From: Patescibacteria group bacterium
GTDB lineage: Bacteria; Patescibacteriota; Microgenomatia; Daviesbacterales; UBA10151
Reading direction: 5' to 3'
Length of the DNA stretch: 38,867 nucleotides
NCBI GenBank assembly: GCA_035289525.1
Contig: DATDWU010000027.1
Coordinates: 1 to 38,867, forward strand
Each line of letters starts with the position of its first letter. The stretch's first letter is position 1. The translations under genes were made by a program, and so were the position numbers. The notes below the pieces were generated by a model. It was not told where the DNA came from. It did no database searches and saw only the letters and a list, made by a program, of their open reading frames with translations. This document shows positions 1 to 31,444 of this stretch, in pieces.

Positions 1-19
1 AATACACCCAATTCTTTCT

Positions 20-95
20 TGGCGCGCCCGGAGGGACTCGAACCCCCAACCGCGACGTCCGAAGCGTCGTGCTCTATCCATTAAGCTACGGGCGC
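20..95 (-). tRNA. tRNA-Arg, anticodon UCG, CCA encoded
   Basis: The reverse complement GCGCCCGTAGCTTAATGGATAGAGCACGACGCTTCGGACGTCGCGGTTGGGGGTTCGAGTCCCTCCGGGCGCGCCA is 76 nt and folds as a cloverleaf. Acceptor is GCGCCCG/CGGGCGC; anticodon arm is CGACG-CTTCGGA-CGTCG (UCG); T arm is GGGGG-TTCGAGT-CCCTC; then G73 and CCA. Confidence 0.9.
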
Positions 96-184
96 AAATT
101 ATATAGTTGCCCTCGCTTGCGAGATTTTCGCCATTATCAAAATCGATGTTTTGATAATGCTTCAATCTTTTAAGCTACGGGCGC
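96..184 (-). repeat. tRNA-Arg-derived pseudo-unit 1 (89 nt), directly upstream of the tRNA
   Basis: 16-nt identity ttaagctacgggcgca at 170-185 versus 81-96, which is the tRNA 5' acceptor/D start. It keeps a D-arm-like GCTT..AAGC, then a perfect 11-bp hairpin at 132-159 (cattatcaaaa/ttttgataatg), followed on the minus strand by GCGAA. The acceptor 3' strand is only partly complementary. Confidence 0.6.
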
Positions 185-274
185 ATTTTTTCAAAATGCT
201 TGTATCTTGCCGTAACTTCGCTACTATTGAAATATTCTTTTCAATAGTACTACGTTACGTAAAGCTACGGGCGC
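185..274 (-). repeat. tRNA-Arg-derived pseudo-unit 2 (90 nt)
   Basis: 16-nt identity aagctacgggcgcaaa at 262-277 versus 83-98. A perfect 11-bp hairpin at 222-248 (tactattgaaa/tttcaatagta) is nested in an outer stem cgtaac/gttacg (211-216/254-259). On the minus strand it is again followed by GCGAA. Confidence 0.6.
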
Positions 275-398
275 AAAAAACATCGAAGATTCTGCCAACC
301 TAAAGTCTCTCCATAGATTAATGGTTACCGAATCATCGAACCCAATCATTGTTTGCTTTTTAAGTTTTAAAAACAATAGCAACAATTCACCTGATATT

Positions 399-731
399 TT
401 AGCAAATTAATAGCTTTTGATTTGGCTCAATTTTAAATTTGCTTATTGTTCCTGTGGGTAGCTCCAAAACATTAAAATATCCGGGATTCCAGAAGAAGAA
501 GCGGTTAGGTTTTAAATTCTTTTTTAATGTTACAACTTTGAAATCCTGATTCAGGACAATAACGTCGACAGGTTCTTTGAGAAAAAACGTATGAATACCA
601 AAGCGGGTTTTAAAAAGCATGTTGCGTGGATTGGTTTTTATGAGTAGTCCGAACATCCGGTCGATAAAAGATCGGGCTATTTTTAAGTCTTTACAAATAA
701 TTTTACCGGTAGTCAGGCTTTTCAGAATCAT
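399..731 (-). CDS. DUF192 family protein
   Basis: DUF192-like core RMFGLL..NMLF..FGIHTFFLKEPVDVIVLN..VLELP. ATG at 731 is preceded by GGAGAAGGA about 8 nt upstream. The ORF-track GTG at 800 is a less likely start. Confidence 0.6.
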   Translation of the reverse strand: MILKSLTTGKIICKDLKIARSFIDRMFGLLIKTNPRNMLFKTRFGIHTFFLKEPVDVIVLNQDFKVVTLKKNLKPNRFFFWNPGYFNVLELPTGTISKFKIEPNQKLLIC

Positions 732-31224: not shown

Positions 31225-31225
31225 G

Positions 31226-31298
31226 CACGCCCGGAGGGATTCGAACCCCCGACCTAAACGTTAGAACCGTCTTGCTCTATCCACTGAGCTACGGGCGC
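31226..31298 (-). tRNA. tRNA-Arg, anticodon UCU, no encoded CCA
   Basis: Minus strand reads GCGCCCG-TA-GCTC-AGTGGATA-GAGC-A-AGACG-GTTCTAA-CGTTT-AGGTC-GGGGG-TTCGAAT-CCCTC-CGGGCGT-G. There is a G1-U72 wobble and an unusual G32. Followed by CAG. Confidence 0.8.
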
Positions 31299-31368
31299 TT
31301 TCATTCATGCGCTGGAGCGAAGTGGAGAGGCGAGTCATTGAAGTCTCATCCACATAAGCTACGTGCGC
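31299..31368 (-). pseudogene. Decayed 70-nt tRNA-Arg-like copy directly upstream of tRNA-Arg(UCU)
   Basis: On the minus strand, GCGCACGTAGCTTATGTGGATGAGAC matches the tRNA 5' 26 nt at about 21 positions. The 3' part TCGCTCCAGCGCA resembles TCCCTCCGGGCGT. No foldable cloverleaf. Confidence 0.5.
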
Positions 31369-31444
31369 ACTTGGAGTATTATATCAATTTAGACCAGTCA
31401 CACAAAACTTTATTATTAGCGACTTATAGTGTAATATAATAATT

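Follow-up and report, generated by a model that had tools for sequence, protein, structure and literature searches.

Tandem copies of a tRNA-Arg 5' end within rod-like units upstream of a bacterial tRNA gene

Introduction

Why would two additional copies of the first nucleotides of a tRNA gene, each joined to a perfect hairpin, lie directly ahead of the intact gene? This question is raised by the region upstream of a tRNA-Arg(UCG) gene in contig DATDWU010000027.1 (assembly GCA_035289525.1) of a Patescibacteria group bacterium, whose entire analyzed stretch of 38.9 kb is called the window below. A preliminary description of the region had proposed that it holds two tandem units related to this tRNA gene that are either under selection or repeatedly regenerated. 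We find that the units derive from the tRNA 5' end, have a rod architecture with fully compensated stems, originated within this lineage, and exemplify an arrangement that recurs widely among bacteria. Recurrent partial duplication of the tRNA 5' end together with leader sequence is a well-supported candidate for their origin. Our leading proposal, to which we assign a probability of roughly 0.4, is that fold-back and direct partial duplications have been kept in the 5' leader of the precursor tRNA (pre-tRNA), where the exact copy of the tRNA 5' end might serve as a decoy.

Architecture of the two units

The intact tRNA-Arg(UCG) gene lies at positions 95..20 on the minus strand, as identified by ARAGORN and by the Rfam tRNA model (66.1 bits, match 23..95), and all unit features are read on this strand. 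We designate the first 15 nucleotides (nt) of the tRNA plus the preceding T as segment O, a 16-mer, and an imperfect inverted copy of this segment as anti-O. The 14-mer AAGCTACGGGCGCA (plus-strand sequence) occurs exactly three times, at 83, 172 and 262, and the spacing of 89 and 90 nt confirms the two upstream units and their reported periods. The intervals between O copies measure 73 to 77 nt. The unit proximal to the tRNA, U1 (97..185, minus strand), carries an O copy (TGCGCCCGTAGCTTAA, 170..185) that is identical to the tRNA 5' end at 16 of 16 positions. The distal unit, U2 (187..275, minus strand), matches at 15 of 16 (275..260) and has TTTA in place of TTAA, such that the perfect copy described for both units is present only in U1. 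The proposed derivation of both units from the tRNA 5' end is upheld by these matches.

In U1, the O copy is followed by a segment called X' (169..146), a perfect 11-base-pair (bp) hairpin (CAUUAUCAAAA-CAUCGA-UUUUGAUAAUG, 132..159), GCGAA (127..131), anti-O (CAAGCGAGGGCA, 119..108), and a tail (ACTATATAATTT) that includes TATAAT at 103..98. X' corresponds to nt 17 to 40 of the unit and duplicates the tail of U2, the 24 nt located just ahead of the U1 O segment (z 4.2, p 0.003). The order in U2 is O, the stem 2 sequence CGTAAC, a perfect 11-bp hairpin (UACUAUUGAAA-AGAAUA-UUUCAAUAGUA, 222..249), GCGAA (217-221), AAGTTACGG, anti-O (CAAGATACAAGCA, 209..197), and a tail (TTTTGAAAAAA). When tested for a direct-inverted-direct arrangement, anti-O yields p values of 0.03 in U2 and 0.12 in U1, and of 0.05 in a related Curtissbacteria locus, L003. 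By our own sequence comparison, anti-O is degenerate in all three (about 9 to 11 of 14 positions), whereas O is exact.

The two apical hairpins occupy the same offset in their units (nt 27 to 54) with GCGAA immediately thereafter, as the preliminary description had noted. Their arms (132-142/149-159 in U1 and 222-232/239-249 in U2) are 100% complementary over 11 bp, also as described, and the loop is 6 nt in both units rather than 5 to 6 nt. These are the only perfect hairpins of at least 9 bp with loops of 3 to 8 nt in the window, and shuffled sequence yields 0.06 hairpins of at least 11 bp per window. Four of the 11 pairs differ between the two stems and every difference is compensated, which agrees with the earlier claim, and a second helix extends the same pattern (AGAUU/AAUCU in U1, CGUAAC/GUUACG in U2). 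A gap-free alignment of U1 and U2 contains 24 pairs, eight of which are changed on both sides and none on a single side. In this alignment 91.7% of cells are paired, a value that falls to 31-46% when the 3' partner is shifted by one to three columns, and GCGAA forms the invariant columns 55 to 59. Outside the 16-mer, the units are identical at 36 of 73 positions (49%), somewhat less than the 55% estimated previously.

RNAfold predicts a single rod for each entire unit, with z values of -4.7 and -4.2 relative to shuffled sequences. Parts of the 16-mer (GCUU/CUU and GUA) pair with a CAAG-containing segment located further 3', and beyond this pairing the rod continues through the second helix, an asymmetric internal loop, and the 11-bp stem. 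GCGAA forms the 3' side of the internal loop and lies opposite GAAG (163..160) in U1 and opposite GUAG in U2. Both units thus share a G(A/U)AG / GCGAA loop above lower stems of 5-6 bp plus 3-7 bp, and the pairs in the rods are Watson-Crick, essentially without G-U pairs.

Comparison with tRNA genes and other known elements

One explanation for such units is tandem duplication of the complete tRNA gene, 76 nt long and with a spacer of roughly 13 nt, followed by ordinary decay of the copies. The 89/90-nt period fits this arrangement, the hairpin begins at unit position 27, where the anticodon stem would start, and the U1 loop (CAUCGA) is similar to the anticodon loop (CUUCGGA). Moreover, true tandem tRNA-Arg pairs with such spacing are common in other genomes, as described below, and some fragments in our survey (for example at L178 and L181) are clearly decayed full tRNA copies. 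However, a search of positions 1-500 with the Rfam tRNA model (RF00005) at E ≤ 10 with permissive filters returned 23-95 as the sole tRNA match, ARAGORN found no tRNA gene within U1 or U2, and alignments of the units with the tRNA past nt 16 score no better than shuffled sequence (p 0.3-0.96). The preliminary description had suggested a check for tRNA pseudogenes, and the covariance model thus finds nothing tRNA-like in either unit. A perfect, compensated 11-bp stem and an exact 14- to 16-mer beside 49% identity are also not what decay would leave, in keeping with the original argument that neutral decay of duplicated genes is insufficient. We consider whole-gene duplication in decay to be very improbable. 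A decoy for RNase P in the strict sense, also proposed earlier, is unlikely given that the units score as nothing tRNA-like.

Searches for other known elements were likewise negative. Rfam 15 reports only tRNA matches in the window and in 24 related loci, no open reading frame (ORF) of at least 60 amino acids overlaps 81-277, and a scan for consensus promoters and terminators found none in 97-276. An intrinsic terminator within the units was rejected on the same scan, and the stems are A+U-rich and followed by GCGAA. A leader peptide with attenuation was also rejected: any such tRNA generates the putative reading frame ATG-CGC-CCG-TAG from its U(-1) and U8-A9-G10, and a ribosome-binding site is absent. 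A likeness of the units to DnaA boxes was considered and dropped.

The units arose in this lineage

Relatives were ranked by amino acid identity of the flanking SurA_N-like protein. Among those at 91%, 86% and 79% the contigs stop before the tRNA, with only L140 (79%) reaching it, and L017 (65%) and L018 (63%) are more distant. The units are absent from all three of these named loci, where the stop codon of a DUF192 gene and a TG-n-TAAAAT site are followed about 8 nt later by the tRNA itself. The equivalent site in the window is the promoter-like TGcTAAAAT at 404..396. Because the relatives have the tRNA directly after this promoter-like site, approximately 300 nt (96-395) were inserted in the lineage examined here.

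Within the species, the arrangement is uniform. Identical U2-U1-tRNA sequences are present in 10 same-species contigs from several groundwater and soil samples, and contigs from four further DNA sequencing runs carry the same two units with no variant joints.

The inserted region also includes a lineage-specific spacer (277..398, minus strand) between TGcTAAAAT and U2. The spacer contains two hairpins, including a long hairpin and a run of six T nucleotides directly before U2, as well as a forward T-loop-like 8-mer (GGGTTCGA) at 343..336, an inverted copy of tRNA nt 8 to 18 at 324..314, and a -10-like CAGAAT at 294..289. The overlapping cAGAATCT, located 13 nt before the U2 16-mer, matches TAGAATCT of L003. 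A decayed ancestral tRNA in 277-398 was tried as an explanation of the spacer and set aside, as the similarity is weak (p about 0.1).

A third, degenerate unit (31299..31369, minus strand) precedes the tRNA-Arg(UCU) gene (31225..31298). Its first nucleotides are UGCGCACGUAGCUUAUGUGGAUGAGAC, an imperfect inverted copy (GCCUCUCCACUUCGCUCCAGCGCA) closes it 9 nt before that tRNA, and a promoter-like site (TTGTGT-16-TGaTATAAT) lies 7 nt ahead of the unit. Its 5' end resembles that of the UCG-type tRNA and not that of the adjacent UCU tRNA, which suggests that sequence may have been copied between the two Arg loci. Copies of the unit in the window are confined to these two tRNA-Arg genes, and the tRNA-His gene in the window has no such unit.

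Recurrence in other bacteria

Similar arrangements were sought among GTDB species with a gapped pattern of two copies of the tRNA 5' 13-mer spaced by 73-103 nt. Six loci were recovered, from a Gracilibacteria metagenome-assembled genome (MAG), two Peribacteraceae MAGs, a Curtissbacteria MAG (L003), a Marinobacter MAG, and a gammaproteobacterial MAG, and in every case 5' fragments are located upstream of an intact tRNA-Arg gene. The Curtissbacteria locus shares with U2 the TTTA variant of O, the anti-O and tail (CAAGnTACA..AGCA..TTGAAAA), and AGAATCT 13 nt before O. A first pattern search of metagenomes returned no matches. A looser pattern, in which an intact 12-mer was required, was then applied to metagenomes and genomes and yielded at least 238 loci from many phyla.

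Among the 238 matches listed, to which the counts in this and the next paragraph apply, 130 loci are true tandem tRNA genes, and at 89 loci a tRNA is preceded by one to four fragments. The other 19 loci include contig ends and coding repeats for collagen-like (Gly-X-Y) proteins. The collagen-like matches come from 13 bacterial and viral contigs and would be false positives in automated surveys. The fragments precede tRNA-Arg genes with all six anticodons, and 11 are found before tRNA-Lys(UUU) and one before tRNA-Val(GAC). About 95 non-Arg tRNAs in these loci had not been selected by the pattern, and three of them have a fragment plus a hairpin: two tRNA-Ser(GCU) genes and one tRNA-Lys(CUU) gene, all in genomes whose tRNA-Arg also carries a fragment. 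The recurring order starts with O, which is followed by a variable insert that often forms a hairpin, by anti-O, by a short leader rich in A+T, and finally by the next O or the tRNA. Four loci are arrays of identical units. The preliminary description had left selection and repeated regeneration side by side, and regeneration stays a live option, since the survey reveals frequent independent origin of such units.

The breakpoints of 107 distinct fragments cluster at tRNA positions 12-22, 25-28 and 39-43, with none at 29-38, none at 44-53, and one at 54. The junctions therefore coincide with pre-existing hairpins: they cluster in the D loop and directly past the D arm and the anticodon arm.

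This distribution bears on whether the units are recombination sites or scars, with the 16-mer as a recombinase core and the 11-6-11 palindromes as binding sites, or tiny mobile cassettes. A mobile element does use the same tRNA gene, the units have a sporadic phylogenetic distribution, and mobility is suggested by a 1569-nt metagenome contig (L262) in which a 66-nt module precedes both tRNA-Arg(UCG) and tRNA-Lys(CUU). These two copies, 1.1 kb apart, are identical at 62 of 66 positions, and each stands behind its cognate tRNA's own first 13 nt. However, there is no recombinase or cargo between or upstream of the copies in the window, the only recombinase nearby, a large serine recombinase, acts at the tRNA 3' end, and the breakpoints avoid the anticodon loop (none among the 107 fragments). 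The units are also indifferent to the mobile element, whose presence or absence varies independently and leaves them unchanged. In addition, the duplicated segment is about 26 nt away from the palindrome center, U1 and U2 do not share their central 6 nt, hix sites have a spacing longer by 2 bp, and none of the hairpin sequences is present in 2.9 million viral contigs. A BLAST comparison of the units with phage records gave only chance 21-mers, and a scan of the genome contigs with the 14-mer GCGCCCGTAGCTTT gave 120 chance matches, none near a tRNA. The recombination core that had been listed among the original candidates is thus quite improbable. The 11-6-11 palindromes have the geometry of Xer/dif-type cores, and their arms (TTATCAAAA and TATTGAAAA) resemble Hin-type hix half-sites. 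A hix-like or dif-like reading was nevertheless rejected on account of the misfit in spacing and the different centers of U1 and U2.

A side observation concerns a near full-length pseudo-tRNA-Arg(UCU) upstream of an intact gene (L355, 7396-7611), in which the D loop contains an inserted 15-bp hairpin and the T loop another large insertion.

Families with conserved fragments

Although anti-O reaches p ≤ 0.05 in only 9 of the 62 units evaluated (14.5%), it is enriched in the whole set relative to a reverse-only control (Wilcoxon p = 0.001). Pairing is most evident in a Saccharimonadales family, wherein 13 O:anti-O pairs are kept in six to nine of nine units while the inserts are unrelated; anti-O in this family matches O at 13 of 17 positions.

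A Parcubacteria-like family of eight loci has a tRNA-Lys(UUU) leader. The first 23 nt of the fragment (GCGCCCGTAGCTGTTTTGGTAGG) are invariant in all eight loci, and 11 of these 23 nt lie outside the 12-mer used in the search, five of them being unlike the tRNA. Variation among the cognate tRNAs affects 14 of 72 sites. These comparisons argue for constraint on the fragment in at least this family. One member (L289) has units of 37 nt, and in another (L209) one O copy has decayed solely by C>T and G>A changes.

An Anaeromyxobacteraceae family, also of eight loci, carries a fragment and a GGGGGCC/GGCCCCC hairpin before tRNA-Arg(UCU), and in three of the loci before tRNA-Arg(UCG). This family is too conserved for covariation scoring, with no variation among its members that could be used for it. 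In L328, from Anaeromyxobacter soli SG29, units precede both tRNA-Arg genes, and the G5/C5 runs are shortened to four, in three segments in concert.

Location in the tRNA leader

If the units have a role at the RNA level, they must be transcribed. The Lys family has a conserved promoter-like CTTGATTTTT-17-TATATA upstream of the first fragment, L003 has TTGTCT-17-TAGAAT upstream of its unit, and a promoter-like site precedes the third unit at the UCU locus of the window. Because these sites precede the fragments, the fragments most likely sit in the 5' leader of the pre-tRNA. A search of RNA sequencing runs found none with the window or the Marinobacter locus, and metatranscriptome contigs at an Anaeromyxobacter locus cover the tRNAs only and are uninformative with regard to the leader.

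The rods might be a different type of selected leader element, such as a signal for processing or stability of double-stranded RNA (for example through RNase III), or the units might constitute tandem promoters that raise tRNA output. With an 11-bp upper stem, a conserved 4-nt/5-nt internal loop, and lower stems of 9-13 bp, both units have two helices split by an asymmetric internal loop in the manner of RNase III signals of the phage T7 R1.1 type. Moreover, the unit tails contain -10-like hexamers (TATAAT, 103..98, and TGaAAAAAT ahead of the U1 O segment), the locus L151 has a good promoter-like site inside each unit, and a fragment family is conserved between species. However, the tail hexamers are only 0-2 nt from O, and transcription from them would begin within the tRNA or the fragment. 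Neither promoter nor terminator emerged from the consensus scan of 97-276, and there is no strand signature over 65 units. An element of this type is unlikely to be the explanation.

A decoy model and functionless debris

The decoy model is as follows. Each of a series of events would have produced one direct copy of the first 12-16 nt of the tRNA (O) and one or more inverted copies (anti-O), along with local leader sequence. Tandem inversion duplications and quasi-palindrome mutagenesis provide known cases of snap-back and template-switch events, and the direct-inverted-direct pattern would reflect replication errors of this kind at the gene's own hairpins. Relics located between promoter and tRNA would be transcribed within the pre-tRNA 5' leader, where O could pair with anti-O across the stabilizing apical hairpin to form a rod. 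Anti-O might otherwise trap the tRNA 5' end that emerges 10-40 nt later, before the 3' strand of the tRNA has been made. An upstream O would capture this antisense segment once it is transcribed, and so an exact O might be kept as a decoy. Selection would then act on O and on the rod, leaving anti-O free to decay. The logic would be that of an attenuator in which 1:2 pairing competes with 2:3 pairing.

The model predicts an exact O beside a degenerate anti-O, and the observed asymmetry is therefore counted in its favor, as are the three exact copies of the 14-mer compared with 49% identity in the rest of the units. Also counted in its favor are the two-sided changes of the rod pairs with their conserved internal loop, the enrichment of anti-O, the promoter-like sites ahead of fragments, the invariant Lys fragment, the clustered breakpoints, and the lack of units in relatives. 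Derivation from the tRNA 5' end, rod architecture, compensated stems, lineage-specific origin and wide recurrence are direct observations, and transcription, a template-switch origin and a decoy role are inferred from them.

Several results dampen our enthusiasm for this model. Many surveyed units have no detectable anti-O, and the survey required an intact 12-mer, so conservation of O in general cannot be read from it. The sense strand is the more stable one in 32 of 65 units, which is no folding asymmetry, and the window units fold slightly better on the antisense strand. GNRA or UNCG loops occur in 2 of 30 cases, which is no excess. At the locus itself, transcripts that start at the ancestral promoter could be terminated by the hairpin and T run immediately preceding U2, and no convincing -35 element was found before U2. 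Anti-O of U1 offers just 8 interrupted bp, and the threat it poses to a stable tRNA fold may be negligible. Finally, the units are not essential, because close relatives lack them.

Nearly as likely as the decoy model is that the units are functionless, DNA-level debris of the same duplication and fold-back origin. The stems could be kept perfect by intrastrand template-switch 'correction' of quasi-palindromes, and the 16-mer could be exact through youth, or through short-tract conversion or slippage that homogenizes it with the adjacent selected gene. The units themselves could have been divergent from birth if they were copied from older local debris. Such an origin is consistent with the Watson-Crick rods and the absence of one-sided changes, with the lack of both a sense-strand folding bias and RNA-type tetraloops, and with the copying of U1 nt 17-40 from the 24 nt ahead of the U1 O segment. 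Likewise, the spacer contains forward and inverted scraps of tRNA, the four arrays of identical units show ongoing amplification, the L262 module is found at two tRNA genes that share a 5' end, and relatives have no units.

Four observations are harder to reconcile with debris. First, the 24-nt segment ahead of the U1 O and its copy X' have diverged by about 17% while O matches at 16/16 and 15/16 positions, for which the rough chance under equal decay is about 0.01-0.05. Second, exact 16-nt repeats that are 90 nt apart should slip out, yet they are invariant in the 10 contigs and four sequencing runs. Third, the Lys fragment is invariant even where it is unlike the tRNA, and conversion from the tRNA cannot maintain it there. 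Fourth, palindrome correction does not predict a conserved asymmetric internal loop.

A broader form of the decoy model would place the units in a widespread class of elements that act in cis in pre-tRNA leaders and are so far uncatalogued. These 'tRNA 5'-end mimic rods' would be born by fold-back, held by selection, and operate as a three-way pairing switch. The mimic, its antisense copy, and the true tRNA 5' end would together protect or conditionally throttle tRNA folding and maturation. Such a class would span many phyla, the Candidate Phyla Radiation (CPR) among them, and would act on tRNA-Arg, tRNA-Lys and further tRNAs. We regard this extension as doubtful.

Relation to known systems

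Tandem non-coding repeats that carry a piece of a tRNA have precedents. The Escherichia coli tyrT locus has 178-bp tandem repeats, each with the last ~19 nt of tRNA-Tyr. Like the units, these repeats are non-coding and contain an exact tRNA end segment, and both probably result from unequal or slipped recombination. They are nonetheless a mirror image of the units, as they hold the 3' end, lie downstream, and have neither a rod hairpin nor an inverted copy.

Fragments of tRNA genes at the attachment (att) sites of integrated phages and islands have been reviewed (PMC9897764) and were reportedly described by Williams in 2002. Such fragments resemble the units as partial tRNA copies near an intact gene that are identical up to a sharp breakpoint. 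However, att-site fragments represent the 3' part of the tRNA, have their breakpoint in the anticodon or T loop, and are located downstream of the intact gene, from which kilobases of an integrase-bearing element separate them. The units represent the 5' part, are 73-77 nt upstream with no element between, and break in the D loop or after whole arms. An att-site fragment of an integrative element was accordingly rejected as an identity for U1 and U2: only 73-77 nt separate the copies, there is no integrase or cargo, and the 5' rather than the 3' part is present. Studies of tRNA-dependent lysogeny (PMC10865867) and of tRNA fragment annotation (PMC9897764) concern 3' events. Our literature search returned nothing on 5' tRNA fragments, on partial duplications upstream of tRNA genes, or on integration at tRNA 5' ends.

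Regarding origin, tandem inversion duplications and quasi-palindrome template-switch mutations are said to have been characterized by Kugelberg, Reams and Roth, by Ripley, and by Lovett. Products of template switching have a direct-inverted-direct order, which the units probably show as well, and share with them junctions at pre-existing hairpins and later remodeling; in these systems, palindrome arms are kept complementary by templated mutation. The documented cases are kilobase-scale duplications under selection or point-mutation hotspots, whereas the units are 70-130-nt elements that are fixed in tRNA leaders across phyla.

Regarding mechanism, attenuation in the trp leader depends on alternative 1:2, 2:3 and 3:4 pairing. 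As in the switch proposed here, the middle of three segments can pair with either neighbor and the partner that is transcribed first wins. The units differ in that they have no leader peptide, terminator or ligand, and the third segment would be the tRNA 5' end itself; the switch is hypothetical. The phage T7 R1.1-type RNase III signals, known from work in the Nicholson laboratory, combine an upper stem of about 10-11 bp and a lower stem with an asymmetric 4/5-nt internal loop. The units resemble them in geometry, with no sequence relationship and in a tRNA leader context, and any cleavage is putative. Integron attC sites and REP elements, like the units, retain structure while sequence varies, have fixed unpaired bases, and share a short motif with a neighboring site. 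At the locus examined here, in contrast, there is no known integron integrase or RAYT protein, the window contains no dispersed copies, and the shared motif is the tRNA 5' end.

Thus, tRNA gene fragments, tyrT-type repeats carrying tRNA ends, and template-switch duplications are all known individually. Their combination into 5' fragments that would fold with their own inverted copies, in leaders, across phyla and with conservation in some families, was not found in Rfam or in the searchable literature and appears to be new. The comparisons indicate that the pattern is real and general, and its function is unproven.

If the rods act in leader RNA, they would represent a new and common form of bacterial control over tRNA folding or output that is built from the tRNA's own sequence. 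They would also provide a natural case of a duplication that creates a dependency, wherein the decoy must persist alongside its antisense partner. If the rods are functionless, tRNA 5' ends would be a hotspot of fold-back and tandem micro-duplication. This would matter for tRNA annotation, in which fragments can be mistaken for genes or att sites, for island-finding tools that rely on tRNA fragments, and for studies of replication-transcription conflicts at highly expressed structured genes. The Anaeromyxobacteraceae, Saccharimonadales, Parcubacteria-like tRNA-Lys, and Marinobacter families are suitable for experiments or covariation analysis.

Neighboring genes and the adjacent mobile element

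The genes that flank the region in the window are housekeeping-like and code for a DUF192 protein, the SurA_N-like protein, a PAP2 protein, and an ABC transporter. The organism is low in G+C, and its gene content looks like that of the CPR. On the other side, a mobile element adjoins the 3' end of tRNA-Arg(UCG) (window positions 1-84, continuing into contig L007, 1-9175). Its genes code for a large serine recombinase, a TraG/VirD4-like protein, Replic_Relax, and DUF2958. The recombinase ORF has 575 codons and spans the junction, and its last 28 codons (1..84, plus strand), which are not part of the units, run antisense to the tRNA. Three strains (L010-L012) are without the element; they depart from the window sequence immediately beyond ...CCGGGCGCGC, and a terminator and a tRNA-Lys gene are found at the empty site. 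When the element is present, tRNA-Arg(UCG) acquires an encoded CCA.

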